64,000 bases of DNA from an uncultured Alphaproteobacteria bacterium (lineage in GTDB: Bacteria > Pseudomonadota > Alphaproteobacteria > HIMB59 > GCA-002718135), in NCBI GenBank assembly GCA_902620425.1, contig CACNHX010000002.1, positions 75,127-139,126 of the forward strand, in the 5' to 3' direction. This document shows, piece after piece, positions 27,028 to 45,375 of the stretch. Numbering within the stretch: the stretch's first letter is position 1; every line of letters starts with the position of its first letter. The notes beneath the pieces are model-generated. The model saw only the letters and a program-made list of their open reading frames with translations, searched no databases and had not been told where the DNA came from. The translations under genes and the position numbers were made by a program.

Positions 27028-27851
27028 TTGATTTTATTCAATAATTTTTCAAATTCATCATCTTTAATTTCAACAATATTTGAGGATGTTGGAAATTTTT
27101 TAGTTTTAACGTCATCTATAAAGTTTTTCAAACCTTCTACAGTGTCATCTATAAGTTTTTCATAAGACTTATTCGTATCCTTAAATACTTTTGCATGTCG
27201 TGGTACTCGACCAGTATTAGTTCCAATTACATCTTGTATAAATAAAAACTCAACATCACAATTTGGACCACTTCCCATTGATAAAGTTAAAAGATTTACT
27301 TTTTTTGTAATTAATTCTGCTACCCGATCAGGAACACATTCTACCTCAAGACCAATAGCTCCCGCATTGTCATATGCAATAGCATCTTGATAAACTCTAA
27401 ATGCTGAGTCAGCATCTTTTCCTACGGCTTTAAAACCTCCGGTCCAAGTACTCTTATAGGGAATTAAACCAATATGACTTACAGATGGTAAACCTTCTTT
27501 ACGAAGAGCTTCAATATATTTTGGACTATTTCCACAATAAACTGCATCTGCTCCATTGTCTCTTGCAATTAATGCAGCATCAATTGCCTTATCAATAGAT
27601 GAAAGTTGACCAAGGCCAAATATCATAAAAGTATTAGGAGCAGCTTCTCTAATATCTTTTATATGAGCATCTCTGAACCATTTATTTGTTGGTACACCGG
27701 TTCTTAATGTTTCTTTTTTAAAAGATACAATTTGGATATCTATGCCAGCTTTTTCTGCAGCATAAGCTTCTAAAGAATTCGTTACATATAGCTCAGTTAA
27801 TTTTACTTTTCCTTTTTTCTCAAATAAATCTTTAACAGTTAATTTAGTCAT
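27024..27851 (-). CDS. Divergent ketopantoate hydroxymethyltransferase (PanB)-like protein
   Basis: HIGL.P, GGFKAVGK, EVECVP, GSG..D..F.F..DV.G resemble PanB, but the GDS, DLPF and KIEG motifs are absent. Confidence 0.7.
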   Translation of the reverse strand: MTKLTVKDLFEKKGKVKLTELYVTNSLEAYAAEKAGIDIQIVSFKKETLRTGVPTNKWFRDAHIKDIREAAPNTFMIFGLGQLSSIDKAIDAALIARDNGADAVYCGNSPKYIEALRKEGLPSVSHIGLIPYKSTWTGGFKAVGKDADSAFRVYQDAIAYDNAGAIGLEVECVPDRVAELITKKVNLLTLSMGSGPNCDVEFLFIQDVIGTNTGRVPRHAKVFKDTNKSYEKLIDDTVEGLKNFIDDVKTKKFPTSSNIVEIKDDEFEKLLNKIN

Positions 27852-29215
27852 TAATTATATTGAGGTAAATAATCACCATGTGCTTCAATCATTTTATCGG
27901 TCATGTTATAAATTTCATCAATTGTCAGATTAGCTCCTGTTAAAGGATCTAGCATTGCAGCATGGTATATATGCTCTCTTTTTTTTGTTAGAGCAGCTTC
28001 TGCAGTTAGTATTTGCACATTAATATTAGTGCGCATTAAAGCAGCTAATTGCTCTGGTAATTTACCAAATTTTTGAGGTTTATAACCTTTTGAATTAATT
28101 ATTACAGGAACCTCTACACAGCAATTTTCTGGTAAATTATCAATTAAATTGTCATTCATAACATTAGCATTGATAGTAACTTCTTTATTATTTGCAATTC
28201 CATCCATTATAAATGATGCATACTCATTACTTCTTTTAAGAGGCATATCATAAATTGGAGTCATATCTTTTTCCAAATCTTTCCAAAGTTTAATGTTGCT
28301 TTTGCATCTATCGATATACTCTTCTATTGGTATCTTGTATTTTTTTATGACGTCATCTCTATTTTGTTTTATGAACCATGGAACATATTCAGCAAAATGC
28401 TCACTAGATTCTGTTACAAAATAACCAAATCTTCTAAGAATTTCATATCGTACTTTTTCATGAAGTACTTTATTAGATTCGTGATCAGTTTTTTTACTTC
28501 TTGAGGATATTTCTTCATCATTTACAATTTTATCAGCTAGTTTTTTTAATCTTGGATATAAATCTTCGTTTTCATTTTCATTAATTTTCTTTTCAAATTT
28601 TTTATAGAAGGCCATATGGTTTATACCGCCACAAAGATAATCAATATTATTAATATCTTCATCTAAATCTTTTGCCAACATTTCTGCGGTTCCTTGAACG
28701 GAGTGACATAGACCCATAGCTTTTATTTCTGGGAAAGCAGTATTTATTGCAATCATGTTTGAACACATTGGATTTACGTATTGCAACCAAGTAGCATTAG
28801 AACAAATATCCATAATATCTTTTGCGATATCTAGTAAAACAGGAATAGTTCGTAGACCTCTCATTATTCCACCTATGCCGAGAGTATCTGCTATAGTTTG
28901 TCTTAACCCAAACTCATTTGGAATTTTAAAATCAATAACTGTGGATGGCTCATATCCCCCTACTTGAATTGTTGTTTGAACAAAGTCTGCACCAACTAAA
29001 GATTCTCGTCTGTCAGTATGGGAAGTAACTTTAGGTGAAACATTTAATTTTTTTGAAATTACATCTATTAAATCATGTGATGCTTTTAATCTTACAGGAT
29101 CAATATCTTGTAATGCAATCTCCATATTTTTAAATTGCTGAATAGCTAAAAGATCGGTTACTATTCTTCTTGTAAAAACAGCACTACCTGCGCCAATTAT
29201 AGTGAGTTTAATCAT
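27851..29215 (-). CDS. melA: GH4 NAD+-dependent alpha-galactosidase (MelA-like)
   Basis: IGAGS, QTIADTLGIGG, YVNPM, GLCHSV, GINHM, FGYFVTESSEHFAEYVPWF. Confidence 0.88.
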   Translation of the reverse strand: MIKLTIIGAGSAVFTRRIVTDLLAIQQFKNMEIALQDIDPVRLKASHDLIDVISKKLNVSPKVTSHTDRRESLVGADFVQTTIQVGGYEPSTVIDFKIPNEFGLRQTIADTLGIGGIMRGLRTIPVLLDIAKDIMDICSNATWLQYVNPMCSNMIAINTAFPEIKAMGLCHSVQGTAEMLAKDLDEDINNIDYLCGGINHMAFYKKFEKKINENENEDLYPRLKKLADKIVNDEEISSRSKKTDHESNKVLHEKVRYEILRRFGYFVTESSEHFAEYVPWFIKQNRDDVIKKYKIPIEEYIDRCKSNIKLWKDLEKDMTPIYDMPLKRSNEYASFIMDGIANNKEVTINANVMNDNLIDNLPENCCVEVPVIINSKGYKPQKFGKLPEQLAALMRTNINVQILTAEAALTKKREHIYHAAMLDPLTGANLTIDEIYNMTDKMIEAHGDYLPQYN

Positions 29216-29948
29216 TTTGATACTCCATGATTGAATTATGAGGTGCCACTTTTAAAGGAGTATACCTTGCGTGTCCAATTTCTTTATATGGATTATTTGT
29301 TTTAGTATTAAAGCATACTATTAAAGTTCTTCTTGAGTAGTTTGAATTATTTGCCTCTGATGAATGTAAAAGATTTGCATGAAAAAAAAGAGCATCTCCT
29401 GGATCGGCTTCAACATAAATACATTCATGTCTTTTTTCTAATTCACGTATTCTATCTAAATCTGCAGTTTGTTCAGGAGTATCAGATACACCATGACCTA
29501 TTCTTCCAACTTTTTGAGATCCTTTTAAAACTTTAAGACAGCCATTTTCTTTTGTAGCCTTATCTAACATTATAAAACAAGATCCCATATCTGGATATAG
29601 ACATGCATTATGATACCAATAACCATAATCCTGATGCCAATCAAAACCACCATCACCTGGCTTCTTCCAAATTACTTTTGAATGATAGTGGTAAACTTCA
29701 TCTTCCAGGAATTCTTCCATTGGTTTTACAATTCTTTCGTTAGTAGAAAATTTCCCAAATAAATCATTTGAGGGTTCATTCCATAATGTAATATTTAATT
29801 TACCCGTAGAACTAAACGTTTCTCTAGCTTGATTTTCTTTCTCAGAATTTCTTTCAATAAATTCAATTAATTTAAATATCTCATCTTCTGAAAAGAGTTT
29901 TCTTTTAAGAATGTATCCATTATTTCTGAAATCTGTGTAATCTGACAT
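29208..29948 (-). CDS. PhyH-family Fe(II)/2OG dioxygenase (L-proline 4-hydroxylase-like)
   Basis: WHQDYGYWY (H105, D107), ENGCL, LLHSS (H195), RR; overlaps melA start. Confidence 0.8.
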   Translation of the reverse strand: MSDYTDFRNNGYILKRKLFSEDEIFKLIEFIERNSEKENQARETFSSTGKLNITLWNEPSNDLFGKFSTNERIVKPMEEFLEDEVYHYHSKVIWKKPGDGGFDWHQDYGYWYHNACLYPDMGSCFIMLDKATKENGCLKVLKGSQKVGRIGHGVSDTPEQTADLDRIRELEKRHECIYVEADPGDALFFHANLLHSSEANNSNYSRRTLIVCFNTKTNNPYKEIGHARYTPLKVAPHNSIMEYQND

Positions 29949-30014
29949 ATTAATTTCATGTTAAAAATAAATAATAATATTGTCAAATAATTTAAGGTGT
30001 TTAAGAATAATCTT

Positions 30015-31478
30015 ATGAAAGTATCATTTCTTGGTGCAGGTAGTGTTGGCTTCACCCAAACCCTTGTTAGAGATATATTAAAAGTTAAAAAACTTCAAAA
30101 TATAGAAATTTCTTTACACGATATATCTAGAAATAATTTGTTAATGGTAGCAGAGTTAATTCAAAAAGATATTAAAGCTAATAATCTTCCAACAAAACTT
30201 AGTATTGATCCAATTAGAAAAGAATCAATAAGAAATGCAAAATATATCATTAGTTGTGTTAGAGTTGGAGGTTTAGAAGCATTTGAAACTGATATATCTA
30301 TTCCTTTAAAATATGGGATCGATCAATGTGTTGGAGATACAATTTGTGCTGGTGGCATAATGTATGGACAACGAAACATTCCAGTTATTTTAGATTTTTG
30401 TAAAGATATAAAAAAATATGCAAAAAAAAATGCTCTTTTCTTAAATTATGCAAATCCTATGGCTATGAATACCTGGGCGGCAAATGAAATTGGTAAAGTT
30501 AATACAATTGGTTTGTGTCACGGTGTTCAAGGTGGAGCAAAATTAATTGAAGATTCATTAAACATTCCATTTGGAAAAATGAAATATTCTTGCAGCGGTA
30601 TAAATCACATGACTTGGTATTTGGATTTAAATTATAAGGGTAAAAAAATTACAAAAGACCAGCTTTCTAAATCGTTAAAGAAACATAAAAAATTTTCAAG
30701 AGATGAAAAAGTTAGAATAGATGTTTTAGATAAATTTGGATATTTTTCTACAGAAAGTAACGGTCATTTAAGTGAATATTTACCATGGTATAGACGTACA
30801 CAAAAAGATGTGAAGAAATGGAGTAGTCTTTCAAACTGGATACATGGCGAAACAGGTGGTTACTTAAGAGTATGTAATGAAAAAAGAAATTGGTTTGTTG
30901 AGGATTATCCAAAATATTTAAAAAATTCTGGAATTAAGCTTAAAGATTACAAAAGATCAACTGAACACGGAAGTTATATAATTGAAGCAATTGAAACTGG
31001 AAAAAAATATAGAGGGCATTTTAATGTTATTAATAAAAAAACAATTTTTAATTTAGATGATGATTGCGTAATTGAGAGTACAGGATACGTAGATTCAAAA
31101 GGTATAAAAATGATTGATGGAATAACCTTACCGCTGCAATGTGCTTCTCTGTGCAGTACCTCAATAGATGTCCAAAGAATGGCTGTAAAGGCAGCAATAA
31201 AAGGAGATATTGAATTATTAAAACTTGCTGTACTGCAAGATCCACTAGTAAGCTCAGTATGTTCATCTGAGGAAGTTTGGCAAATGGTAGATGAAATGCT
31301 TGTTGCACAAGCACAATGGCTGCCACAATATCAATCAAAAATTAATAGTATTAAAAAGAATCTAAAAAAAATAAAAAATTATAAATATAATAAATCAATT
31401 AAAGGGCTGACCAAAAAAACAAAGCGTAATCAACAAAAAAGGTCAATTTTAGTTGAAAAGGAAGCATTTAATTTATAA
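30015..31478 (+). CDS. Second GH4 alpha-glucosidase/alpha-galactosidase
   Basis: Start at MKVSFLGAGS; DQCVGDT, NYANPM, GLCHGV, GINHMTW, STESNGHLSEYLPWY. Confidence 0.87.
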   Translation: MKVSFLGAGSVGFTQTLVRDILKVKKLQNIEISLHDISRNNLLMVAELIQKDIKANNLPTKLSIDPIRKESIRNAKYIISCVRVGGLEAFETDISIPLKYGIDQCVGDTICAGGIMYGQRNIPVILDFCKDIKKYAKKNALFLNYANPMAMNTWAANEIGKVNTIGLCHGVQGGAKLIEDSLNIPFGKMKYSCSGINHMTWYLDLNYKGKKITKDQLSKSLKKHKKFSRDEKVRIDVLDKFGYFSTESNGHLSEYLPWYRRTQKDVKKWSSLSNWIHGETGGYLRVCNEKRNWFVEDYPKYLKNSGIKLKDYKRSTEHGSYIIEAIETGKKYRGHFNVINKKTIFNLDDDCVIESTGYVDSKGIKMIDGITLPLQCASLCSTSIDVQRMAVKAAIKGDIELLKLAVLQDPLVSSVCSSEEVWQMVDEMLVAQAQWLPQYQSKINSIKKNLKKIKNYKYNKSIKGLTKKTKRNQQKRSILVEKEAFNL

Positions 31479-31559: not shown

Positions 31560-33611
31560 ATGAAAAAAAATAAATTTAGATCCACATTACTTGCTAGCGT
31601 AGCATCAGCTACTTTTGCATTAACCAGTACAAATGCGTCTGCTAGACCGGAAGGTGCAATAGCACTTCCATCAGCACCTGCAATTGAAAATATGCAAGAA
31701 GTTCAGTTCATTGGAAGAGATGAATTGATGAGCTATCAAGATATTGGAGACTTTGAATTTCTTTATGAACCAGAATACATTAGTGCTCTAGTTCAAGAAG
31801 GTAAACTACCACCGATTTGGGAACGATTACCAAAAAGACCTTTAGTTTTTAATGGAGATGCAATGCCTGATGGTATTGGTCGTTATGGAGGAACTTTTAG
31901 ACATACAATTGGTGGAAGACCTGAAGGATGGAACTGGACTGCTTCACAACATCAAGGATGGGGTGGAATTAATTACACAGTTCAAGAATGCCTAACAAGA
32001 AACGGTCCAATGGTAAGATTAAAAGCTGAAGACTCTTATCCTTTACCAAACTTAGCTACTGATTGGGAATGGGATGGAAATAAACTTACTATGAATCTTA
32101 TTGAAGGAGCAAAGTGGTCAGATGGAGATCCATTTGATGCAGAAGATGTTCGTTTTTGGTGGGAAGATAACGTTTTAGATGAGAACGTTCCAACAAGAAT
32201 GAATGCAACCACAATGGGAGAAGGGACTTCTTTGGAAGTACTTAGTCCAACCCAGATTAGATGGACATTCCCACAAGAAGAACCTAAATTAGTTCTTCAC
32301 TCCATGGCATATATAAATGGATGCCCTGGACCATCACATTTACTTAAAGAACATCACCCTAAATATGGTGGTACGTCTTATGATGATTATGTTCAAGCAT
32401 TTCCTGCTGGACGTTTACCATGGGTTAGCATGGGTGCATGGACTGCTGTTGAATATAAACAAGACGAGGTAGTAATACTTCGCAGAAATCCATACTATTG
32501 GAAAGTTGATAGTAAAGGACAACAACTTCCGTATATGAACGAGATGGTGTTCCAGTTAAAAACTTGGGGCCAAAGAACAGTTGATACCTTAGCTGGTAAC
32601 GCTGACTTCTCGAATATGGAGAACGTACCTTTATACTTAGAAGCTGTTAAAGAGTCTAAGAGTGATGATGCACAAGCTCAACTATCTTTTAGTGGAAGAA
32701 CCATGGGATATCAACTCGCCATGAACCAAGCAATTGGGTTAGGTGTATTGGATGATCAAATGGCAGCTATTCGAGATCTAAATAGAAATTTAGAATTCAG
32801 AAAAGCTGTTAAGCATGCAATTGATGGTAAAGCATTTGCAAAAGCAATGTCCAAAGGACCATTTGTGACAGTTTATGCAGGCGGTCTTGCTAGAGATAGT
32901 GCTTTCTTTGATGCAGATGCTACTTCATTTTTCCCTTATAATCCAGCAGGTGCAAATTCTATACTTGATGGATTAGGTCTTATAGATACTGATGGTAACG
33001 GAATTCGAAACCTTCCAAATGGAGGTGGAGATCTAGTTATTAATTTAGTTCAAAATAAAGGCAGTGATAATGAAATGTTGATTGGCGATGGAATGGCAAC
33101 TATGATGGCTGAAGTTGGTATTAAAATTAATATTAAACCAATGGAAGATACTGAGCCAACAAGACAAGCAGGTGAATGGGATTGGTTACTTGTAAGATCT
33201 CAACAAGAAATGGCCTTCCCTAATTCGGGTTATTGGTCAGATATGGGTCCTGTAACTACGTCTTCATTTGATCCTCACTTAGGAACTGATGAACACCCTC
33301 AACAACTTCAACCATTTGAGAAAGAAATCGTAAGTATTCTTGAAGAGTGGAGAGATGGTGTTGAAGGTGCAGAGGCTCAAGCATTAATGTCTCGCTATCA
33401 GAAACTATTTACAGAAAATGTTTATATGCCTGGTATAGTTCAATATCCAACAGCACTTTTGATAAACAAAAGAATTCAAAACTTAGCTGATGGAATGCCT
33501 GTTTTGGCTTATCAATGGGCTGAAGATACAGTTATCCGTGAACAATTCTGGGTTTATCAATATGATCAATTAGATGAACTTTTCCCTGGAAGAGTTCCTG
33601 GTATTGATTAA
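31560..33611 (+). CDS. Family 5 ABC substrate-binding protein, AgpA-like (probable alpha-galactoside binding)
   Basis: Signal peptide; GKLPP..ERLP, YGGT, WSDG.PF.A.DV, RNPYYWKVD.KG.QLPY; GGAGG SD; adjacent to GH4 genes. Confidence 0.8.
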   Translation: MKKNKFRSTLLASVASATFALTSTNASARPEGAIALPSAPAIENMQEVQFIGRDELMSYQDIGDFEFLYEPEYISALVQEGKLPPIWERLPKRPLVFNGDAMPDGIGRYGGTFRHTIGGRPEGWNWTASQHQGWGGINYTVQECLTRNGPMVRLKAEDSYPLPNLATDWEWDGNKLTMNLIEGAKWSDGDPFDAEDVRFWWEDNVLDENVPTRMNATTMGEGTSLEVLSPTQIRWTFPQEEPKLVLHSMAYINGCPGPSHLLKEHHPKYGGTSYDDYVQAFPAGRLPWVSMGAWTAVEYKQDEVVILRRNPYYWKVDSKGQQLPYMNEMVFQLKTWGQRTVDTLAGNADFSNMENVPLYLEAVKESKSDDAQAQLSFSGRTMGYQLAMNQAIGLGVLDDQMAAIRDLNRNLEFRKAVKHAIDGKAFAKAMSKGPFVTVYAGGLARDSAFFDADATSFFPYNPAGANSILDGLGLIDTDGNGIRNLPNGGGDLVINLVQNKGSDNEMLIGDGMATMMAEVGIKINIKPMEDTEPTRQAGEWDWLLVRSQQEMAFPNSGYWSDMGPVTTSSFDPHLGTDEHPQQLQPFEKEIVSILEEWRDGVEGAEAQALMSRYQKLFTENVYMPGIVQYPTALLINKRIQNLADGMPVLAYQWAEDTVIREQFWVYQYDQLDELFPGRVPGID

Positions 33612-33621
33612 TAAATTTTTT

Positions 33622-33652
33622 AGTAAGGGGCTATTTAAGCCCCTTACTTTTT
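33622..33652 (+). terminator. GC-rich hairpin plus T-tract after SBP gene
   Basis: AGTAAGGGGCT-ATTTA-AGCCCCTTACT-TTTT. Confidence 0.8.
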
Positions 33653-33660
33653 AAAAAAAA

Positions 33661-34659
33661 ATGCTTTCATTTATATTCAGAAGAATTCTTTATTCAATTC
33701 CATTACTGTTCGTAATCAGTATTATAATTTTTTTTATTATTGAATTACCGCCTGGTGACTATGCAACATGGTATGTTAGTCAAACTAAAGCTTTAGCAAA
33801 TATCACACAAGAACAAGCTTTAGAACTAACAATAATGTTGAGAGAAAAATACGGCCTTAATGAACCATTAGTAATAAGATATTTCAATTGGATTAAAAAT
33901 ATTGTTTTAAATTTCGATTTTGGTTTTTCCATGCATTACAACAAACCTGTCAGTGAAATGTTAGGTGATAGATTACCTCGAACTCTAGTAATAGCATTAA
34001 TTTGTCATTTTTTTGCTACAACTATAGGTGTTTTTATAGGAATTTATGCTGCAAAAAATCAAAATAAGTTAGGTGATAATGTAGCTACTATCTTCGCTTT
34101 TTTAGGAATGACCATTCCACGTTTCTTTCTAGCATTACTAATAATGTATTGGTTAGCAATTGTTCTAAATTCAGACAACACTGGATCAATGTATTCTCCA
34201 TACTACGCTGTTCAACCAATGTCTTTTGCAAAACTATGGAATGGCATACTTCATATTTGGCCAATATTTGTCATCGCTATAATCGGAGGTCTTGCCTACA
34301 ATATGAGAGTTATGCGCGGAAATTTATTAGATGTAATGCGTATGCAATATATTGAAACAGCAAGAGCAAAAGGTTTGTCTGAAAATCAAACATTGTACCG
34401 TCATGCAGTACCAAATGCTTTGCATCCCCTTGTAATGTTTCAGGGTATTGCTTTACCATATATGCTAATGGGAGAACTAGAAGCTGCGATCGTTTTATCT
34501 ATTCCAACTGCAGGACCACTTTTAGTAGAATCTATTCAAAGACAAGACACTTATACTACTGCAGCAATTTTATTTTGCTTAACAGTAATATTAATTATAG
34601 GAAATATAATTGCTGATATTTTGCTAGCAATTTTAGATCCTCGAGTAAGACAGAATTAA
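33661..34659 (+). CDS. ABC permease (OppB/DppB type)
   Basis: LPPGD, YIETARAKGL EAA loop, AD.LLA.LDPRVR. Confidence 0.9.
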   Translation: MLSFIFRRILYSIPLLFVISIIIFFIIELPPGDYATWYVSQTKALANITQEQALELTIMLREKYGLNEPLVIRYFNWIKNIVLNFDFGFSMHYNKPVSEMLGDRLPRTLVIALICHFFATTIGVFIGIYAAKNQNKLGDNVATIFAFLGMTIPRFFLALLIMYWLAIVLNSDNTGSMYSPYYAVQPMSFAKLWNGILHIWPIFVIAIIGGLAYNMRVMRGNLLDVMRMQYIETARAKGLSENQTLYRHAVPNALHPLVMFQGIALPYMLMGELEAAIVLSIPTAGPLLVESIQRQDTYTTAAILFCLTVILIIGNIIADILLAILDPRVRQN

Positions 34660-34664
34660 ATATT

Positions 34665-35768
34665 ATGGAAACAACTTCAAACTTACAAAATTCATATTTT
34701 TCACTAGTAAGAAAAAGATTTTTGAAAAACAGAGTTGGAATATTAGGCTTAATTTTTGTAGGCTTTCTAATTTTCTCTGCTGTTTTTGCAGATTTTTTAT
34801 CTCCATATGATCCAGCAGCAAGAGATAGTGATAGAGTTTTTTATCCTCCTCAGGGAATACATTTCTTTGATGAGGATAATAATTTTTCGTTAAGACCTTT
34901 TGCTTATGGTTTTACTGAAGGATTTGATCCTGACACATATCTTCCAATAATGGAGATTGATTATACTCAAAAAAACTATCTTTATTTTTTTACTAGAGGA
35001 TGGGAATATAAGTTTCTAGGCTTAAATTTGGACTTACATTTATTTACTACTAAAGACGGGTCTAAAGTATTTTTTATTGGATCAGACGCCTATGGAAGGG
35101 ATATGTTATCAAGAATTTTTAAGGGAAGTAGGGTAACGCTATTATTCGCTCTGATAGTTGTAAGTATAACAACTTTCATTGGTATTTTAGTTGGAATTAG
35201 CTCAGGTTATTTTTCAGGAAAATTTGATATAGCTTCACAAAGAGTTACGGAACTTGCTTTAGCTTTTCCAGATCTACCTTTGTATTTATCCTTGGTAGCA
35301 ATTCTGCCAAGGCAAATGGATCCATTTCTGATTTTTATCTTTATGGCATTTATTTTATCCTCTTTACGGTGGGCTCAACTATCAAGAGAGGTTCGGGGAA
35401 AAACCCTTTCTTTAAGAAGATTAGACTATATTAAAGCAGCTGAAGCTTTAGGCTCCAATGATCTAAGAATTATATATAGACATCTACTTCCCAATGTAAC
35501 AAGTCACGTTATAGTAAGTGTTTCTTTATTGATACCTTCTGTAATTTTGACAGAAAGTTTTTTTAGCTTTTTAGGTTTAGGCATTCAATCTCCATTTGTT
35601 AGTTGGGGTCTTCAATTAAATTCTGCTCAAGATATGCGAACAATTGGAAGTTATCCATGGGTTTTAAGTCCTGTTTTTGCAATCTTAATTTCAGTTTTAG
35701 GATTTAATGCTCTTGGTGATGCTTTACGCGATGCAATTGATCCATATGCAACAACAACAAAAAAATAA
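34665..35768 (+). CDS. ABC permease (OppC/DppC type)
   Basis: GSDAYGRD.LSR, YIKAAEALG, SFLGLG, LGDALRDA.DP. Confidence 0.9.
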   Translation: METTSNLQNSYFSLVRKRFLKNRVGILGLIFVGFLIFSAVFADFLSPYDPAARDSDRVFYPPQGIHFFDEDNNFSLRPFAYGFTEGFDPDTYLPIMEIDYTQKNYLYFFTRGWEYKFLGLNLDLHLFTTKDGSKVFFIGSDAYGRDMLSRIFKGSRVTLLFALIVVSITTFIGILVGISSGYFSGKFDIASQRVTELALAFPDLPLYLSLVAILPRQMDPFLIFIFMAFILSSLRWAQLSREVRGKTLSLRRLDYIKAAEALGSNDLRIIYRHLLPNVTSHVIVSVSLLIPSVILTESFFSFLGLGIQSPFVSWGLQLNSAQDMRTIGSYPWVLSPVFAILISVLGFNALGDALRDAIDPYATTTKK

Positions 35769-37390
35769 TGACTAATCTTGTTGAAATTGAAAATCTTCAA
35801 GTAAAGTTTAATACAGATAGTGGTAAAGTAAATGCAGTGAATGGCATATCCTTTAATATTAAAAAGGGTGAAACATTAGCACTAGTAGGAGAGAGTGGGT
35901 CTGGTAAATCTGTTACTGCTAGAGGAATTATTCGATTACTTGCAGAAAATGCAATTATATCTGATCAAACATCAATAAAGTTTAATGGTACAAATATAAA
36001 TTCTTATTCTGAAAAAGAGTATCAAAATATTAGAGGAAAAAATATTTCAATGATTTTTCAAGAACCAATGAGTTCTTTAAATCCAATATATACAATTGAA
36101 AACCAAATTAGTGAGGTTTTAAAAATTCATGGAAAATTTTCAGATAAAGAACTCAAAGAAAAATGTCTTGAATTACTAAAACAAGTTCAAATTCCAGAAC
36201 CAGAGTCTAGATTATCACAGTATCCACATCAATTGTCAGGAGGACAAAGACAAAGAATTATGATTGCTATCGCCATAGCTAATAATCCAGATTTACTTAT
36301 TGCAGATGAGCCAACTACTGCTCTTGATGTTACAGTTCAAACAGAGATACTTAAATTACTTCAAAGTCTTCAACAAAAATATCAAATGTCCATTTTATTT
36401 ATTACTCATGATCTGACTATTGTCAGACAAATAAGTGATAGAGTTTGTGTAATGTATAATGGAAAAATTAAAGAAACAGGCATTACAAAAGAAATTTTTG
36501 AAAATCCAAAAGATGATTATACAAAACATTTATTGTCATCAGAGCCAGAAGAAAGAGATTTACATTATGATAAAAATGGAAGAAGCATCCTTTCAGGAGA
36601 AAATCTTAATGTAACATTTAATACTAAAGTAAAAGTATCAGGTAGAAATAAAGTTTTATCAATTAACGCTGTAAATAATATCAGTCTCGATCTTAAAGAA
36701 GGTGAGACTCTTGGAATTGTTGGCGAAAGTGGATCTGGTAAAACTACTTTAGGTCAAACTTTATTAAGGTTAGTTGATAGAGAATCTAACACAGATGTAG
36801 AAGGTGAAATTAAGTTTTTTGATGATCGAATTGACCGTTTATCTCGAAAGCAATTTAAGCCATTTAGAAATCAAATGCAGATAGTTTTTCAAGATCCATA
36901 TGCATCTTTAAATCCACGATTGTCTGTTAAACAAATTATAGAAGAGGGATTAATTGTAGCACTTAATATGAAAGATAAAAACGAACGGCTAAATAAAATT
37001 GAAAACATAATGAGTGAAGTTGGTTTAGAACCTAGCTCCATGCTTAGATTTCCTCATGAGTTTTCTGGAGGCCAAAGACAAAGAATAGCTATAGCAAGAT
37101 CATTTGTCTTAAATCCAAAATTTGTCTTATTGGATGAGCCAACATCAGCTCTTGATTTATCTATTCAAAAACAAATTCTAGAACTATTACTTCAACTCCA
37201 AAAAAATCACAAAACTACTTATATTTTTATCAGTCATGATTTAAGAGTTATTAGATCAATAAGCCACAATTTAATCGTTATGAAAGATGGTTCGATTCTA
37301 GAACAAGGTGTGGCAAAAAATATATTAACCAACCCTCAGAATGATTATACAAAGAATTTAATAAAATCTGCTTTTGATATTATTTATTAA
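35768..37390 (+). CDS. Double-domain ABC ATPase (OppD-OppF fused type)
   Basis: Two Walker A motifs (GESGSGKS, GESGSGKT), two SGGQRQR, two DEPT motifs. Confidence 0.93.
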   Translation: MTNLVEIENLQVKFNTDSGKVNAVNGISFNIKKGETLALVGESGSGKSVTARGIIRLLAENAIISDQTSIKFNGTNINSYSEKEYQNIRGKNISMIFQEPMSSLNPIYTIENQISEVLKIHGKFSDKELKEKCLELLKQVQIPEPESRLSQYPHQLSGGQRQRIMIAIAIANNPDLLIADEPTTALDVTVQTEILKLLQSLQQKYQMSILFITHDLTIVRQISDRVCVMYNGKIKETGITKEIFENPKDDYTKHLLSSEPEERDLHYDKNGRSILSGENLNVTFNTKVKVSGRNKVLSINAVNNISLDLKEGETLGIVGESGSGKTTLGQTLLRLVDRESNTDVEGEIKFFDDRIDRLSRKQFKPFRNQMQIVFQDPYASLNPRLSVKQIIEEGLIVALNMKDKNERLNKIENIMSEVGLEPSSMLRFPHEFSGGQRQRIAIARSFVLNPKFVLLDEPTSALDLSIQKQILELLLQLQKNHKTTYIFISHDLRVIRSISHNLIVMKDGSILEQGVAKNILTNPQNDYTKNLIKSAFDIIY

Positions 37391-38916
37391 TGAGGAAATT
37401 AAAAAACGTAACTATCCTAGGCGCAGGCACCGCCGGTTGGATTTCTGCATATATTCTAAGTGATTTTTTTTACACAAATAAACAAAATGTAAAAGTAACA
37501 ATTGTTGATCCTTCAAGCATTCCTATAATTGGTGTTGGAGAAGGAACAACCGGAATATTTTATGATTTTTTAAAAAGATATAATTTAGATGAACTAGACT
37601 TTTTAAGAGAAACAAAAGCTACTCTAAAGTTTGGGATTGTTCATAAAGACTGGAAAGAATTAAATCATCAATATTATGGACCAATTGATGACCCACATTT
37701 GTTAGCATCTAAAAAAGACCCTGAAGATTTTGAATATTTAAATGTTTATGCAGTTGCTGCAGGTCGATCTGTTGCTGATGTGCATTTACACACAAAACTA
37801 ATGGAAACAAATAAAGTTCCTTTCAATCTTGAAAATAGCAGACCCGATTTAAAAAGCCCTTTTTTCTATGCTTATCATTTTGATAATCATCTTGTTGGAA
37901 ATTATTTAAGAAAAAGATCAAAAAATATAGAGATTCTTGATGAAGTCTATACGCATGCTTCATTAAATGAAAATGGAGAAATTGAAAAACTTCATTTTGA
38001 AAGTGGTAAAGAAATTGAAACTGATTTAGTTCTTGATTGTACAGGCTTCAGAAAACTCCTCATAAATAAATTATATAATGTTGGATGGAAATCTTATCAA
38101 AAAAATTTACCAGTAAATAGAGCTATGCCTTTCTTTTTAAAATTAGATGAAAAAAATATTAGTAATTATACTTTAGCTTGGGCACAAAAAAATGGTTGGA
38201 TGTGGCAAATACCAACTCAAGAAAGAATTGGTGCTGGTTATGTATATTGTGATAATTTTACAAGTCCAGAAGAAGCTAAGATTGAAATAGAGAAAGTCTT
38301 AGGTCATGAAATAGAACCAAGAAACGATATTAAATTTACTTCGGGTAGAATAGAAAAATCATGGGTAAAAAATTGTATTGCCATAGGATTAGCTTCTGGC
38401 TTTCTTGAGCCATTAGAAGCCACTTCAATTCATAGCACTCTAATACAAATGATTTTGTTTGCAACTGATTACCTCAAAGAAGAAATGGATTTTAATAATG
38501 AAAAAATAATGGATGAGTTTAATGATAGAGTTGGACGTCAGTTTGATGATTTTATGATCTTTCTTAATACTCATTATGTGTCCAATAGAGATGATAGTGA
38601 TTTTTGGAAATATGTTAAAAATGAATGTATTCACGAAGACACTTTGAACCTCATTAATAAATGGAAAAATCAATTACCTAGGATGAGTGATTTTGAATTA
38701 TATCTTTCAGGCCTTCCTCATGTTCAATCACAACTTTATTATCCTGTTTTAGATGGCCTAGGTTTACTCCAAAAAGATGTTGCAAGGGAAGAAATGAATA
38801 ATTTTAATTTAAAGCCCTTTGCAAGAGATGAATATAAAAGATTTAATGATCAGTATGATGATCAAATGAAAAGATTCATAAAGCACAATGATTATTTAGA
38901 ATATGCATCACTTTGA
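37390..38916 (+). CDS. Flavin-dependent (tryptophan) halogenase family protein
   Basis: GAGTAG, IGVGEGT, ATLK(80)FGI catalytic Lys, WMWQIP, FLEPLEATSI. Confidence 0.85.
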   Translation: MRKLKNVTILGAGTAGWISAYILSDFFYTNKQNVKVTIVDPSSIPIIGVGEGTTGIFYDFLKRYNLDELDFLRETKATLKFGIVHKDWKELNHQYYGPIDDPHLLASKKDPEDFEYLNVYAVAAGRSVADVHLHTKLMETNKVPFNLENSRPDLKSPFFYAYHFDNHLVGNYLRKRSKNIEILDEVYTHASLNENGEIEKLHFESGKEIETDLVLDCTGFRKLLINKLYNVGWKSYQKNLPVNRAMPFFLKLDEKNISNYTLAWAQKNGWMWQIPTQERIGAGYVYCDNFTSPEEAKIEIEKVLGHEIEPRNDIKFTSGRIEKSWVKNCIAIGLASGFLEPLEATSIHSTLIQMILFATDYLKEEMDFNNEKIMDEFNDRVGRQFDDFMIFLNTHYVSNRDDSDFWKYVKNECIHEDTLNLINKWKNQLPRMSDFELYLSGLPHVQSQLYYPVLDGLGLLQKDVAREEMNNFNLKPFARDEYKRFNDQYDDQMKRFIKHNDYLEYASL

Positions 38917-38965: not shown

Positions 38966-39042
38966 GGGCTCTTAGCTCAGTTGGTTAGAGCGCCCCGCTC
39001 ATAACGGGGTGGTCCGGGGTTCAAGTCCCTGAGGGCCCACCA
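38966..39042 (+). tRNA. tRNA with CAT anticodon, probably tRNA-Ile2 (lysidine)
   Basis: GGGCTCT/AGGGCCC acceptor, anticodon arm with CTCATAA loop, GGTTCAAGTCC T arm, CCA. Resembles E. coli ileX more than metT and lacks initiator features; Ile2 versus Met not certain. Confidence 0.88.
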
Positions 39043-40154
39043 TTTAATTTTGTTGAAAAGTTAAATATAGTAAATATTAAAAAGAAAATTACACCAAATA
39101 TGATTAAAAAATAATTGATATTAAAGCTTATTAAAGTACCAATGATAGTTGGACCAACAAAGGAACCAATATTTTCACATATACTATAACTTGCTACTCC
39201 AAAAACAATTAAATGGCTTTTTAAATTAGTGTTAATTAAATTGAAATTAATAAGGAATAAACTTCCTATAGATAAATAAAAAATAAAAGTAAAAAAAATG
39301 ATACTAAAATAATTTTCTGTAAAAAAGAAAATAATTAAACCAGCAATGGAAATTAAGCAGAATATATTTAAAATTAAAACTTTGCTAATTTTATCTATTA
39401 ATTTTCCTATTAATGGAAAGATTAATAACACTAATATTCCTGAAGTAAAATTAATTCTTCCAACATCTTTATCTGTAAAACCTTTTTCAATTAAGAATGA
39501 TGGAAAAAGAGAACTCCAACCTGCATCACTAATTCCTAAAAAAAATACACAAATTAAAATAAATTTAATATTATTAATCACATTATAAGATAATGAAAAC
39601 TCAACCTTTTCAACTTTCGTTAAGAGTATGCTCGATTTAGAAACAAAAACTGGTAAAAATTGAAATACAATAAGCAGTATAGCGATTACATAACTTAAAT
39701 AATTAACTCCATTAAATGCAATAATAAGAGAGCCCAGTATTGCTCCAAATCCCGCACTAGACCAAAACAAAGAAATATAAAAACCTGATTTATTTTTAAA
39801 TTCTGAACTAATATATGTTTCAATTGTCAAAAAATTGATATGATTTGTAAATCCCATGACAAATGTAATAATCACAATAGTGAAAATGCTGAATTGAAAA
39901 AATAAAAGTAAAAAAAATAATAATTGAATTAAAATAGAACAAATTAAAGTAAAAAATAAACTATACTTTTCTCTAATAATATTATGCAAAAATGAAGAAA
40001 CAATAACTCCAAGTGCAAAAAAGGACAAAGAAAAACCAATTAAAGATTCATTATAATTTTTTAATTTAAGATCTATTGCTAGAGTAGAAGATAGAAAACT
40101 TGCTGCAAGAGCAAAAGAAAATATGATTGTCGAATAATTAATAATATTCCTCAT
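39021..40154 (-). CDS. MFS transporter (divergent)
   Basis: About 12 hydrophobic segments; G.L.DK..K loop motif in C-terminal half; G..VGP. Confidence 0.7.
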   Translation of the reverse strand: MRNIINYSTIIFSFALAASFLSSTLAIDLKLKNYNESLIGFSLSFFALGVIVSSFLHNIIREKYSLFFTLICSILIQLLFFLLLFFQFSIFTIVIITFVMGFTNHINFLTIETYISSEFKNKSGFYISLFWSSAGFGAILGSLIIAFNGVNYLSYVIAILLIVFQFLPVFVSKSSILLTKVEKVEFSLSYNVINNIKFILICVFFLGISDAGWSSLFPSFLIEKGFTDKDVGRINFTSGILVLLIFPLIGKLIDKISKVLILNIFCLISIAGLIIFFFTENYFSIIFFTFIFYLSIGSLFLINFNLINTNLKSHLIVFGVASYSICENIGSFVGPTIIGTLISFNINYFLIIFGVIFFLIFTIFNFSTKLNGGPSGT

Positions 40155-43548: not shown

Positions 43549-45375
43549 ATGTCAGTTGTGAGTAATAGTAGAAGATTTAGACCCGAAAAGGTTGCGCCGT
43601 ATTTTTTTATATCGCCATTTTATATTATTTTTACAATTTTTTTTCTTTTACCTACCATAGCTTCTTTTATTTTAGCTTTTTACAAATGGAAAGGTGTAAA
43701 GGCTCCTAAACCTAGAGGGTGGGGAAACTTTGAATATTTATTTTTTAAAGACCAAAACTTTTGGGAAACTTTCCAGAATACAGTATTTTATTCTGCTGGC
43801 AGTGTGTTTATTACTATTCCCCTTGCTCTTTTATTAGCTCTTGCTCTTAATAGTCATAGTTTAAAACTAAAACCTTTTTGGCGTTTAGTATTTTTCTCAC
43901 CGATTGTTACTTCAGTTGTTGCAGCTGCATTAACTTTCAAGATGATATTAAATAGTGAATTTGGATTACTTAATTATGTAATTGGTTTTATTGGAATTGA
44001 ACCAGTCAATTGGGTTGAGTCATCAGCAACCTCAAAGTGGTCTGTCATGATGTTAGTAATATGGAGATGGACTGGTTTAACCTGTATTTATTTTTTAGCT
44101 GGACTACAATTTATAGATAGAACTTTGTATGAAGCTGCAAAAATTGATGGTGCAACGGCATGGCATCAATTCTGGTATGTTACTCTTCCACAATTAGCAC
44201 CAGTTACTCTTTTCGTTTGTATAATTGTTTCTATTGGCTCTTTTCAAATATTTGAAGATGTATTTGTTATGTATAGTGGAAATGATGTTCCAACTCACGC
44301 TAAATCAATGGTTGTATACATGATGGAAAGAGGTTTCAATCAACTTAAATTAGGTTTTGGTTCTTCTATTGGTGTATTTATGTTCATCTGTATTTTGGTT
44401 ATATCATTATTTCAATTTAGATCATTTGCATCAAATTTAGATCAGGATGCTAGAAAAAGTTTTATTGAGAGAATTTTATCTCCTATCATAGATTTTATTG
44501 CTAATATTTTTCCAATAGAATCTGCTACTTCTAGTAAAAAATCTTTATCTCCAAAAATTGGTAAATACTCATTAAATTTCATTATAACAATTATTGGCTT
44601 GATAACACTTATCCCTTACGCTTTCATGCTTACCTCTTCAGTTAAATCAACAGCAGAAATAATGGCATGGCCACCAATAATGTGGTCTAAAAGTCCTAAT
44701 TGGGAAAATGTAACAAAATTGTTTACTGAGTTTCCAGCAAGTTTGTGGATATTTAATTCCTTCTTTGTTGCGATTGCAGTTACAATTTTAACGATTTTTT
44801 TATGTACTTTAGCTGGGTATGCTTTTGCAAAATATAATTTTAAAGGAAAAAATAAACTTTTCATATTTATGGTAGCAACTGCAATGATACCTTTCCCAAT
44901 TATAATGATCCCTCTTTACGTTTTAGTGGGGAGAATGGGAATGAATGATACTTTATCGGGATTAATCATTCCTTTTATTGCTCCTGCCATAGGAATTTTT
45001 ATGATGAGACAATTCATAACTTCTGTTCCTGATGAATTAATTCAAGCAGCAAGATCAGATGGTGCTGGTGAGTTTAGAATTTTTTGGCAAATAATTGTCC
45101 CACTTGTTTGGCCTGGTATTGCCACTCTAGCAATAATTACATTTGTTAATTCTTGGAACAGTTTCTTATGGCCTCTTATAATTTTAAGAGATGATCTTAA
45201 TTATACCATTCCTCTTGGTATGACAGAAGTATTTGCGTTAAGTGTTGGTCAGGAACCACAGTATGGACAAGCTATGGCTTTTGCAACCTTAACAACAATT
45301 CCAATTATATTCATTTTTTCTTTTGTTCAAAAATATTACATTGCTGGCTTATCAGCAGGAGCAGTTAAAGGTTAG
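43549..45375 (+). CDS. Fused double carbohydrate ABC permease (MalF-type plus MalG-type)
   Basis: Two EAA loops (LYEAAKIDGA, LIQAARSDGA) in one continuous 608-aa frame. Confidence 0.88.
   Translation: MSVVSNSRRFRPEKVAPYFFISPFYIIFTIFFLLPTIASFILAFYKWKGVKAPKPRGWGNFEYLFFKDQNFWETFQNTVFYSAGSVFITIPLALLLALALNSHSLKLKPFWRLVFFSPIVTSVVAAALTFKMILNSEFGLLNYVIGFIGIEPVNWVESSATSKWSVMMLVIWRWTGLTCIYFLAGLQFIDRTLYEAAKIDGATAWHQFWYVTLPQLAPVTLFVCIIVSIGSFQIFEDVFVMYSGNDVPTHAKSMVVYMMERGFNQLKLGFGSSIGVFMFICILVISLFQFRSFASNLDQDARKSFIERILSPIIDFIANIFPIESATSSKKSLSPKIGKYSLNFIITIIGLITLIPYAFMLTSSVKSTAEIMAWPPIMWSKSPNWENVTKLFTEFPASLWIFNSFFVAIAVTILTIFLCTLAGYAFAKYNFKGKNKLFIFMVATAMIPFPIIMIPLYVLVGRMGMNDTLSGLIIPFIAPAIGIFMMRQFITSVPDELIQAARSDGAGEFRIFWQIIVPLVWPGIATLAIITFVNSWNSFLWPLIILRDDLNYTIPLGMTEVFALSVGQEPQYGQAMAFATLTTIPIIFIFSFVQKYYIAGLSAGAVKG

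Follow-up and report, generated by a model that had tools for sequence, protein, structure and literature searches.

Halogenase homologs in the carbohydrate-uptake loci of proteobacteria were noted by 2010 (PMC2938197) and are still unexplained. In that work, Iyer et al. (2010) described a neighborhood of a JmjC/2-oxoglutarate dioxygenase, SapC, a TonB receptor, and one to three "tryptophan halogenases," and predicted that it synthesizes a halogenated siderophore-like compound. The BrvH/Xanthomonas-type cases are difficult to work on, since their large polysaccharide loci contain several paralogs. Among sugar-uptake systems, the melA-agp locus of Sinorhizobium meliloti is an alpha-galactoside system for which melibiose and raffinose use is documented (PMC4254191). 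Here, we describe a halogenase homolog that is encoded with genes related to the latter system and belongs to a clade marked by the motif GPIDD. In the literature searched, which included subscription papers in part, the only papers found to touch on this clade or on the function of sugar-locus halogenases were Iyer et al. (2010) and those on BrvH/Xcc, and no characterized member of the clade was found.

A halogenase homolog overlapping an ABC transporter gene

In the window, which is the whole 64,000-nucleotide stretch of DNA analyzed, a flavin-dependent-halogenase homolog of the GPIDD clade is encoded at positions 37390 to 38916 of the forward strand, as assigned by Pfam PF04820, PDB matches, AlphaFold2/Foldseek, and clade conservation. 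The genome is Pelagibacteraceae-like (SAR11, Pelagibacterales), with a GC content of about 29% and near-identical database proteins named "Pelagibacteraceae bacterium." The ORF starts with ATG and encodes 508 amino acids. The ORF of the fused ABC ATPase ends at 37390, the base at which the halogenase homolog starts (junction sequence ...TTATTAATGAGG...), so that the TAA stop and the ATG start overlap by 1 base (TAATG).

Pfam PF04820 (Trp_halogenase) covers residues 6–428 with an E value of 1.2e-99, and solved tryptophan halogenases in the PDB match at E = 1e-66 to 1e-35. The FAD motif GxGxxG reads G11-A-G-T-A-G16, the FAD-sensor GVGE occupies residues 48–51, K80 lies within ATLKFG, WxWxIP spans residues 270–275 in G269-W-M-W-Q-I-P275, and the halide segment reads E343-A-T-S-I347; G97-P-I-D-D101 and a GLPH loop at 441–444 are also present. 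Alignment with 6NSD, 5HY5, and 8FOV placed K80 at the catalytic Lys of ATxK and E343 at the Glu of EPLESTGI, which are K79 and E346 in the PrnA reference numbering. The AlphaFold2 model (pLDDT 89.8, pTM 0.90) was matched by Foldseek to Thal, PrnA, RebH, PyrH, SttH, and Xcc4156 with TM scores of 0.82–0.88 and E values of about 1e-40, and its overall fold, an FAD-binding "box" and a helical "pyramid," is of the flavin-dependent halogenase type; the pocket residues were deduced from alignments alone. Neither a signal peptide nor a fused reductase was found in the protein. These data indicate a predicted halogenase-type flavoenzyme with intact FAD, Lys, Glu, and tunnel motifs. Thus, both the intact halogenase homolog (with GxGxxG, K80, WxWxIP, and EATSI) and its TAATG coupling to the ABC ATPase gene, as reported in an earlier sequence-only reading of this DNA, were confirmed.

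A predicted operon for alpha-galactoside uptake and hydrolysis

The first gene of the operon, GH4a (29997 to 31478, forward strand; Pfam GH4), encodes a family-4 glycoside hydrolase of the alpha-galactosidase subfamily in the MelA position and scores 540 bits against NCBIfam PRK15076, for which the cut-off is 486. It is followed, all on the forward strand, by a periplasmic alpha-galactoside-binding protein of the MelB/AgpA type with an Opp-family fold (31560 to 33611; SBP_bac_5), an OppB/DppB-type permease (33661 to 34659; BPD_transp_1 and BPD_transp_1_N), an OppC/DppC-type permease (34665 to 35768; OppC_N and BPD_transp_1), and a YejF/GsiA-like fused double ATP-binding protein (35768 to 37390; two ABC_tran domains, NCBIfam YejF-like 637 bits). 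The binding protein matches PDB 6EPY, "Periplasmic alpha-galactoside-binding protein," over residues 37–681 of 683 (E = 3.4e-179, 601 bits), and is 43% identical over 681 amino acids to Ensifer/Rhizobium proteins from loci of the order AraC-GH4-SBP-permease-permease-ATPase-GH4. By this homology, on which the transport specificity also rests, the operon is an alpha-galactoside uptake and hydrolysis system; the marine ligand of the transporter could perhaps be an alpha-galactoside other than melibiose, raffinose, or galactinol. A sugar ABC operon had been proposed previously, and the 6EPY-like binding protein and the GH4 genes support the sugar assignment, but the transporter belongs by sequence to the Opp/Dpp (peptide/nickel) family and not to the classical CUT1/CUT2 sugar ABC families.

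A second alpha-galactosidase-subfamily enzyme, GH4b (27851 to 29215, reverse strand; Glyco_hydro_4 and Glyco_hydro_4C), scores 585 bits against PRK15076 (cut-off 486), and its ortholog adjoins the halogenase homolog in most related loci. GH4b is transcribed divergently from the main operon. It overlaps by 8 bases the gene of a PhyH-family Fe(II)/2-oxoglutarate dioxygenase of the hydroxylase type (29208 to 29948, reverse strand; Pfam PhyH, E = 2e-32), whose motif WHQDYGYW includes HxD. A SyrB2-type Fe/2-oxoglutarate halogenase was ruled out for this protein, given the intact HxD and a score of 46 against the NCBIfam "chlorinating enzyme" cut-off of 226. PhyH is kept beside the operon in the SAR11-type loci L001, L003, L017, L018, and L040 and is sporadic outside SAR11. 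The 3′ boundary of the operon is marked by a tRNA-Met (CAT) gene (38966 to 39042, forward strand; ARAGORN), a landmark without a functional part; it also lies 3′ of the operon in L017, L018, and L040, with the halogenase gene placed differently in the latter two. No AraC-type activator (AgpT) adjoins the operon in the window, nor does the SAR11 locus hold a regulator gene. Among the ORFs scanned at 22–60 kb of the window, no NRPS, PKS, or other secondary-metabolite gene was found, in agreement with the earlier claim that none lies nearby.

The clade is marked by GPIDD in place of HxF

The clade of the halogenase homolog was monophyletic in 200 of 200 neighbor-joining bootstraps. Across 20 members, down to 47% identity, G11, G13, G16, E51, K80, W270, W272, I274, P275, E343, T345, S346, and I347 are invariant. 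The Trp2 position reads GPIDD in all 30 of 30 members, replacing the indole-stacking HxF, which is present in nearly all tryptophan/indole halogenases of Table 1 in PMC8269204 and is kept in the TonB-receptor-linked homologs with retained catalytic motifs. The group B Trp3 motif (QxxQ/QxxxQ), which binds the amino-acid moiety, is absent, the aligned segment being LKSPF or PLGPF, and the group A Trp4 motif YYxxFExEFRNFW, which has the same role, is absent from the halogenase homolog as well. Its loop YLSGLPHVQS has only G, L, P, and the last S in common with the group B Trp4 motif (Y/H)YHG(L/F)(P/E)PYS; G441, P443, and H444 are invariant in 20 sequences, and the loop is variable in some Rhodobacterales members. 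LPVNRAxPF is an invariant block specific to the clade.

With the HxF sandwich gone and the carboxylate-binding QxxQ absent, the clade substrate is, judging from these motifs, probably something other than free tryptophan, and the database name "tryptophan 7-halogenase" is probably wrong because the invariant GPIDD replaces HxF. The sequence-only reading had overlooked this distinctive feature and pointed to EATSI as a departure from ESTGI. That reading of EATSI did not hold: the halide segment is E[A/S]TSI throughout the clade, and the presence of ESTSI in the TonB-receptor-linked homologs makes EATSI unremarkable. In this segment, the Gly-to-Ser change alone sets these non-tryptophan halogenases apart from the PrnA type. 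The GPIDD orthologous clade is, as far as the literature searched shows, previously undescribed.

Linkage to the alpha-galactoside gene set is conserved

Linkage was counted in the best 80 of more than 583 matches in a genome scan, so the counts describe a sample. All 26 of the 26 loci of at least 39% identity in this sample lie beside GH4 and/or transporter genes, in at least four gene orders. By comparison, none of the 54 loci of at most 37% identity among the same best 80 does, and 41 of the 54 lie beside TonB-dependent receptors. The conserved transporter link on which the sequence-only reading had staked its operon assignment is therefore present. That reading had also cited homologs at carbohydrate-uptake loci of Xanthomonas and Caulobacter; such homologs do exist in Caulobacterales, Lysobacterales, and Alteromonadales, but they form a different clade and serve as an analogy from another orthologous group, because they are at most 37% identical, keep HxF, and are TonB-linked.

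GPIDD-clade carriers belong to the alphaproteobacterial orders Pelagibacterales, Hyphomicrobiales, and Rhodobacterales, and homologs at 78, 66, 62, 53, 50, and 47% identity all lie in loci with GH4, binding-protein, permease, and ATPase genes. The position of the halogenase gene varies: it may close the locus, come second, separate two GH4 genes, or adjoin an AraC gene; a Sulfitobacter plasmid (Rhodobacterales) has the order GH4-halogenase-GH4 with 4-base overlaps. Among the 33 clade loci searched, the sole accessory gene that recurs outside SAR11 is AraC, found in 14 non-SAR11 loci, and no conserved flavin reductase or other accessory enzyme was found around the gene. The clade loci have no recurring short peptide gene, and none of them has a TonB-dependent receptor. 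The clade enzyme is best explained as an accessory component of a MelB/Agp-type module of a binding protein, two permeases with their fused ATPase, and two NAD-dependent GH4 alpha-galactosidases.

Selection and expression

The dN/dS of the halogenase homolog is 0.05–0.24, the value of 0.05 marking strong purifying selection, and the gene is covered by contigs in eight metatranscriptomes. Purifying selection and metatranscriptome presence indicate a real function, as its retention had been taken to imply. The binding-protein gene has the deepest operon contigs in metatranscriptomes X2–X4. Positions 37266–37383 were uncovered and no transcript contig bridged the ATPase-halogenase junction in the eight metatranscriptomes, where the Logan contigs are short and of low depth; the start codon is close to the first positions of two transcript contigs, 37384 and 37392. 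Such breaks are expected because of the short contigs and low depth. A scan of 29–40.3 kb found no promoter-like or terminator-like site at the junction, a scan that is uninformative in this AT-rich DNA, with fewer promoter-like sites than in shuffles.

Proposed function and alternative explanations

Our preferred reading, which we hold with about even confidence, is that the protein is a cytoplasmic two-component halogenase-type enzyme, accessory to the alpha-galactoside module, that halogenates an imported or GH4-derived compound. By the mechanism of the halogenase family (PMC7336383), a general flavin reductase would supply FADH2, which with O2 would form flavin C4a-hydroperoxide; this would generate hypohalous acid by oxidizing Br- or Cl- at the E-[A/S]-T-S-I site, and the tunnel lined by W270 and W272 would lead the acid to K80 and E343, where the bound substrate would be halogenated. 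The likeliest substrate would be a compound imported by the transporter, or released or formed by GH4 (a glycoside, an aglycone, or a keto/enol sugar intermediate), because the pocket appears polar and acidic and because of the genomic context. Halogenation is disfavored by the lack of a flavin reductase gene conserved in the neighborhood of the 33 clade loci, and by the fact that melibiose and raffinose, the known substrates of such transporters, lack the electron-rich aromatic carbons that halogenases normally attack. Moreover, rhizobial loci work without the gene, so the halogenase homolog is dispensable for basic alpha-galactoside use, and the presence of Lys, Glu, and WxWxIP may reflect structural inheritance and is no proof of halogenation.

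It is possible, albeit unlikely, that the protein is a halogenase-derived flavoenzyme that has lost halogenation and uses flavin hydroperoxide or oxidized flavin directly on a substrate of alpha-galactoside catabolism, hydroxylating or oxidizing either an aglycone or a compound derived from a sugar. Such a change would fit a rebuilt pocket, in which GPIDD stands for HxF and the invariant blocks LPVNRAxPF and GLPH are specific to the clade, a purely catabolic context without biosynthetic genes, and sugars that lack the typical target carbons. Yet all clade members have WxWxIP, a motif regarded as barring substrates from the flavin, and the catalytic Lys and Glu and the backbone segment of the halide site do not vary either; there is no sequence mark of lost hypohalous-acid chemistry of the kind visible in the degenerate TonB-array paralogs, which have lost these motifs. 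We consider it improbable that the substrate is a protein or peptide, for example a residue of the neighboring GH4 enzymes, in the manner of peptide-accepting halogenases or flavoprotein maturases. MibH, a non-tryptophan halogenase, acts on peptides, Xcc4156 has been proposed to accept them, and the coupling to GH4 genes is tight, as in the Rhodobacterales GH4-halogenase-GH4 arrangement with its 4-base overlaps; in Salinarimonas (L042), the gene after the outlying GPIDD-type homolog encodes a radical SAM/SPASM protein, a kind of enzyme typical of peptide maturation, but this is one locus only. Halogenase-free rhizobial GH4 loci of the same architecture support alpha-galactoside use, no short peptide gene recurs in the clade loci, and the immediate neighbor varies among GH4a, GH4b, the ATPase, and AraC, all of which argue against a protein substrate.

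That the gene is a mere passenger at the operon end, with its own promoter and functionally unrelated to the transporter, is very improbable. The unbridged ATPase-halogenase junction and the contig starts at 37384 and 37392 would agree with it, although breaks are expected from short, low-depth contigs; the 1-base overlap leaves zero intergenic space, the scan of the junction turned up no promoter-like or terminator-like site, and the linkage persists in 26 of 26 loci from three bacterial orders (best 80 of more than 583 matches) despite repeated rearrangement, with some positions inside the operon. Hardly credible is a true tryptophan 7-halogenase as annotated publicly. Database sources do use this name, and tryptophan 5- and 6-halogenases are the top matches by sequence in the PDB, but Trp2 HxF, Trp3 QxxQ, and the Trp4 motif of the 7-halogenase group A are all missing, no biosynthetic cluster was found among the ORFs scanned at 22–60 kb, and even genuine tryptophan halogenases frequently carry a wrong annotation of this kind (PMC8269204).

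Significance

Taken together, the GPIDD clade represents a genuine new form of the orphan halogenases already known from carbohydrate-uptake loci. It offers a simpler system, with one gene copy, a small operon that points to one substrate class, the alpha-galactosides, and a clear sequence signature of a changed substrate pocket; its cultured carriers include Devosia, Sulfitobacter, Tabrizicola, and Marivivens. Because of the strict linkage to the alpha-galactoside gene set, the role of the halogenase homolog there is now open to testing. Solving this clade could reveal the role of halogenase chemistry in sugar catabolism and would fix the widespread misannotation "tryptophan 7-halogenase," and it would bear on marine carbon and halogen cycling because SAR11 is so abundant. 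A more far-reaching and doubtful proposal is that a halogenase takes part in primary carbon acquisition in SAR11 and other abundant aquatic Alphaproteobacteria by halogenating, perhaps transiently, a carbohydrate-derived substrate such as a GH4 enol/keto intermediate or an aglycone. If true, a halogenase would for the first time have a catabolic role linked to sugars, and such enzymes could be a microbial source of organobromine in seawater.

Comparison with known systems

The closest known systems include the group C orphan indole halogenases BrvH, Xcc4156, Xcc1333, and Xcc4345, which share with the halogenase homolog the Pfam family, the fold (TM 0.84 to 6Y1W), the catalytic Lys and Glu, WxWxIP, and an E-S/A-T-S-I segment with Ser replacing the Gly of PrnA; the native substrates of the BrvH/Xcc enzymes are also unassigned. 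Like the GPIDD clade, the sampled TonB-linked relatives with group C motifs occur in carbohydrate-uptake loci and not in biosynthetic clusters. However, BrvH/Xcc and these relatives are only 25–37% identical to the halogenase homolog and form a separate clade (200/200 bootstraps), keep HxF, lack a Trp4-like loop, and adjoin TonB-dependent receptors, often as two to five tandem paralogs, whereas the GPIDD clade has GPIDD and the GLPH loop and is single-copy with ABC importer and GH4 neighbors.

The top solved-structure matches are the group B tryptophan 5-/6-halogenases SttH, Th-Hal, Tar14, PyrH, and AbeH (E = 1e-66 to 1e-57), whose Trp4 motif (Y/H)YHG(L/F)(P/E)PYS the loop xxxGLPxxxS partly resembles. 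These enzymes differ, nevertheless, in Trp1 (ATFS(D/T)(I/V) versus GTTGIF here), Trp2 (HPFE(Q/R) versus GPIDD), Trp3 (QxxQ, missing here), and the halide segment (ESTGI versus EATSI), and they come from actinobacterial secondary-metabolite clusters.

As in the set of Iyer et al. (2010), a halogenase homolog with an intact Rossmann fold and Lys lies with a 2-oxoglutarate dioxygenase, here PhyH, by an uptake system in Alpha-/Gammaproteobacteria. Unlike that set, the present loci combine an alpha-galactoside ABC importer with glycosidases, have no TonB receptor or SapC, and include PhyH regularly only in SAR11. The siderophore-biosynthesis reading is ruled out for the GPIDD clade, which is without a TonB receptor, SapC, or a peptide synthetase.

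The operon itself resembles the alpha-galactoside uptake systems of Agrobacterium (MelB, 6EPY), to which its binding protein is homologous over the full length, S. meliloti (agpT-melA-agpABCD), and Ensifer (L015). The shared set includes a pair of Opp-type permeases, their fused ATPase, and two GH4 enzymes of the alpha-galactosidase type. An AraC activator is part of the rhizobial loci, which lack a halogenase homolog, whereas the SAR11 locus, without a regulator gene, adds a halogenase homolog and a PhyH dioxygenase to this shared architecture.

Results

HAL and the operon that it closes

HAL, the halogenase homolog, is encoded by a plus-strand ORF of 508 residues (37390-38916; Pfam PF04820), and the final A of the TAA stop codon of the preceding ORF (35768-37390) is the first base of its ATG (TTATTAATGAGG), confirming the one-base overlap with the ATPase gene described in the sequence-only reading. 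The protein matched Pfam Trp_halogenase (PF04820) with E=1.2e-99 over residues 6-428. The FAD motif (GAGTAG, residues 11-16), K80 within ATLKFG, the WxWxIP motif (GWMWQIP, residues 269-275) and EATSI (residues 343-347), all named in that reading, were found in the translation. HMMER alignments to solved halogenases placed K80 opposite their catalytic Lys; E343 fell on the Glu of EPLESTGI. A confident AlphaFold2 model (pLDDT 89.8, pTM 0.90) superposed on Thal, BorH, PrnA, RebH, PyrH, SttH and Xcc4156 with TM scores of 0.82-0.88. The feature is real and its first description correct in essentials; by motifs and modeled fold, HAL belongs to the flavin-dependent halogenases, and it is predicted to work like them.

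The other genes of the operon, all on the plus strand, encode the family-4 glycoside hydrolase GH4a (29997-31478), an SBP_bac_5 binding protein (31560-33611), OppB-type (33661-34659) and OppC-type (34665-35768) permeases and, directly before HAL, a fused double ATPase (35768-37390). Minus-strand genes for a PhyH dioxygenase (29948-29208) and a second GH4 enzyme, GH4b (29215-27851), diverge from it. The transporter is, by sequence family, a peptide/nickel-type system. Its binding protein aligned from end to end with PDB 6EPY, "Periplasmic alpha-galactoside-binding protein" (E=3.4e-179), and was 43% identical to rhizobial binding proteins from AraC-GH4-SBP-permease-permease-ATPase-GH4 loci, an architecture shared by the S. 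meliloti agpT-melA-agp locus, which serves melibiose and raffinose use (PMC4254191). Both GH4 proteins, scoring 540 and 585, exceeded the NCBI curated cutoff of 486 for the alpha-galactosidase subfamily. Thus, the earlier designation as a sugar ABC operon holds and can be narrowed to a predicted module for taking up and hydrolyzing alpha-galactosides.

The window has a GC content of about 29%, and near-identical proteins labelled Pelagibacteraceae point to a SAR11-type genome. The operon lies in a carbohydrate island (27.8-54.6 kb) that includes two further sugar ABC systems and is flanked by dnaG/rpoD on one side and mlaAC/uvrD/ligA on the other; no secondary-metabolite genes were found among the ORFs scanned from 22 to 60 kb, as the sequence-only reading had maintained. 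A second sugar ABC system has a probable fused double permease gene (43549-45375; 608 aa, two BPD_transp_1 matches); after it come genes for GFO/IDH/MocA and aldo-keto reductase proteins and for a LacI regulator. A tRNA-Met (CAT) gene (38966-39042) lies 3′ of the HAL operon and adjoins a minus-strand MFS transporter ORF (39021-40154), whose last seven codons overlap the 3′ end of the tRNA gene on the opposite strand (39021-39042).

Linkage of HAL to GH4 and transporter genes is conserved

A genome scan with one genome per species gave 80 loci, the best 80 of more than 583 matches. Their neighborhoods were scored by phmmer, the queries being proteins encoded in the window plus a TonB receptor. 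A conserved link to the transporter had been set beforehand as a point on which the idea could fail: among these best 80 of more than 583 matches, GH4 and/or transporter genes adjoined the homolog in all 26 loci at ≥39% identity and in none of the 54 at ≤37%. The 26 came from SAR11 single-cell genomes, Devosia, Kaistia, Bauldia, Aestuariivirga, Tabrizicola, Histidinibacterium, Marivivens, Rhodobacter, Cypionkella and other Paracoccaceae. A TonB-dependent receptor was present in 41 of the 54 distant loci, often with two to five tandem halogenase paralogs; annotated examples are Asticcacaulis (TonB receptor-HAL-GH95) and a Catenovulum xylan locus (TonB receptor-HAL-HAL). A neighbor-joining tree built from 128 homologs grouped all GH4-linked proteins in a single clade in 200 of 200 bootstraps.

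Within the clade, gene order varied. It was as in the window at 78% identity (L001/L002), GH4a-HAL-SBP-B-C-ATPase at 66% (L003-L005) and 62% (L006-L008), where SBP is the binding protein and B and C the two permeases, and PhyH-GH4a-SBP-B-C-ATPase-GH4b-HAL at 53% (L009). At 50% (L012/L013), AraC-HAL stood beside GH4a with a convergent SBP-B-C-ATPase-GH4b unit, and Devosia (L014, 47%) had AraC, GH4a and HAL with that unit nearby on the opposite strand. On a Sulfitobacter mediterraneus plasmid (SBP-B-C-ATPase-GH4-HAL-GH4), HAL overlapped both neighbors by 4 bases. Loci at 51% (L010/L011) read GH4b-x-PhyH-HAL, with mannosylglycerate-hydrolase-like GH, GH2 and GH32 genes nearby. In this lineage (L010:2-12112, L011), HAL overlapped the upstream PhyH gene and no ABC genes were found within 13 kb; this gene content, GH4 included, hints at heterosides, small glycosides of algae, as a possible target. 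Outside SAR11, an AraC regulator was the only other recurring gene, and no conserved flavin reductase gene was found in the neighborhoods of the clade loci.

In the SAR11 lineages L017 and L018/L040, as in the window, the operon is followed by the same tRNA-Met gene (regions L017:11527-12521; L018 and L040:17701-17777). HAL is the last operon gene in L017 and the second in L018 and L040, indicating that it moved within a syntenic locus and was kept. In L017, a 97%-identical relative, a minus-strand PhyH gene lies between HAL and the tRNA gene; it is absent from the window, an indel of about 0.9 kb. A contig binned as "uncultured Prochlorococcus" (L052, CAJWWR010000053.1) carries the end of the SAR11 operon at 98% identity, and this assignment is probably a binning error. 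Judged from gene neighborhoods, comparative genomics could hardly make a stronger case for the linkage of HAL, and the idea held on this point.

The substrate-site signature departs from that of tryptophan halogenases

Lee et al. define four tryptophan-binding motifs; in Trp2 (HxF), residues one and three stack on the indole ring, and HxF is kept in nearly all tabulated tryptophan halogenases and in most non-tryptophan group C enzymes, e.g., BrvH (HPFGL), the exceptions still having Phe (PMC8269204). In an alignment of 137 homologs from all loci, this position read GPIDD in 30 of 30 members of the GH4-linked clade and HxF in the TonB-linked homologs retaining the catalytic motifs, a few divergent tandem paralogs deviating. 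A Streptomyces homolog showed the group B1 tryptophan 5-halogenase pattern (HPFER, YYHGFEPYS, ESTGI). In HAL, Trp1 reads GTTGIF, versus mostly AT[IVF][PS]xx in characterized enzymes, and Trp3 (QxxQ) was absent in the comparison with the published motifs (PMC8269204). The loop YLSGLPHVQS faintly resembles the group B Trp4 motif, in keeping with the PDB scores: those for SttH, Th-Hal, Tar14 and PyrH were slightly better than those for BrvH or Xcc4156.

Residues invariant in a 20-sequence clade alignment were Y95/G97-PIDD101, L240-PVNRAxPF248, R380/Q384-DDF388, N393/H395/Y396/R400/D402 and G441/P443/H444/Q448; in the 137-sequence alignment, GPIDD stayed invariant, and several Rhodobacterales members had substitutions in the GLPH loop. 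The halide segment was E[A/S]TSI clade-wide and ESTSI in TonB-linked proteins, so the EATSI/ESTGI difference noted in the sequence-only reading is shared by non-tryptophan halogenases in general and does not set HAL apart.

Lacking HxF and Trp3, HAL falls outside the tryptophan halogenases; lacking HxF and a TonB receptor and lying in a separate clade, it also falls outside the receptor-linked BrvH/Xcc group. HAL is best described as a putative orphan flavoenzyme of the halogenase type whose substrate site has been rebuilt and is more polar and acidic. The public name "tryptophan 7-halogenase" is very probably wrong for HAL given the HxF-to-GPIDD change and the absent Trp3.

Two further observations concern distant homologs. 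Salinarimonas sp. NSM (L042:9986-13165) encodes a GPIDD-type homolog (34% identity) that branches next to the clade and is, among loci from the best 80 of more than 583 matches, the only one of its type without GH4 or transporter genes nearby; a radical SAM/SPASM protein, a typical peptide maturase, is encoded directly after it. In tandem arrays by TonB-dependent receptors, some paralogs have lost GxGxxG, the catalytic Lys and WxWxIP (e.g., GRDADA / YALG / GWIGFYP; ORF starts L061:8423, L068:8407, L055:8458, L044:3083, L067:5465 and 8500, L043:5450) and resemble pseudo-enzymes without catalytic function, retained next to intact copies.

HAL is under purifying selection and is transcribed

The dN/dS of HAL was 0.05 in the comparison with the 97%-identical relative and 0.12-0.24 in comparisons with SAR11 relatives at greater distance, and metagenome clusters of near-identical proteins had hundreds of members. 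HAL contigs occurred in eight marine/aquatic metatranscriptomes, with depths resembling those for the two permeases and the ATPase. In X2-X4, three of the four runs compared across the whole operon, the binding protein gene (31560-33611) reached contig depths of 20-97, far above the roughly 1-9 of the permease, ATPase and HAL genes, a difference suggestive of unequal mRNA stability or of attenuation beyond the first genes; a consensus scan found no terminator-like site in the 33611-33661 gap. As for ATPase-HAL cotranscription, no contig in the eight metatranscriptomes covered 37266-37383, the ~120-base 3′ end of the ATPase gene; the HAL gene body was covered, with contigs beginning at 37384 and 37392 in two runs. 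This gap may stem from breaks in the assembly of AT-rich sequence or from a separate internal 5′ end, and a consensus scan found neither promoter nor terminator at the junction.

Discussion

The evidence in hand comprises the fold, the cofactor and catalytic motifs, the clade linkage to an alpha-galactoside module, selection and the presence of transcripts. Following the family mechanism (summarized in PMC7336383), FADH2 and O2 would form a C4a-hydroperoxide that oxidizes halide to hypohalous acid, which would be guided to K80 and E343 to halogenate the bound substrate. Given the pocket changes and the genomic context, this substrate would be neither tryptophan nor a stacked indole, and more likely a compound imported by the transporter or made by the GH4 enzymes. 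That HAL is a catalytically competent halogenase-type enzyme with a non-tryptophan substrate, an accessory of alpha-galactoside use, is in our judgment evenly balanced.

Several points speak against so simple an account: the electron-rich aromatic targets usual for halogenases are missing from known alpha-galactosides, rhizobial alpha-galactoside use needs no HAL gene, and HAL has no linked reductase partner. HAL might instead perform a non-halogenating flavin reaction, which we consider rather unlikely; the residues paired with the catalytic Lys and Glu of solved halogenases are in place. A protein or peptide substrate, hinted at by the radical SAM/SPASM neighbor of the outlying Salinarimonas homolog, seems improbable. 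An unrelated passenger gene is very improbable beside a linkage kept through changes of gene order. A true tryptophan halogenase, as the public name has it, is scarcely credible in a protein reading GPIDD at Trp2. As a small and tractable system for a long-standing question, the HAL clade deserves follow-up.

No publication on the GPIDD clade was found in the literature searched, the coverage of which was incomplete. Orphan halogenases in carbohydrate-uptake loci are already known; what appears new is the GPIDD signature and the strict linkage to GH4 and MelB/Agp-type transporter genes in three alphaproteobacterial orders. Iyer et al. (2010) described halogenase homologs and 2-oxoglutarate dioxygenases by uptake systems and interpreted them as siderophore biosynthesis (PMC2938197), a reading that does not fit the HAL locus. 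The two represent the same general phenomenon, but the HAL locus differs in having an alpha-galactoside importer and glycosidases.
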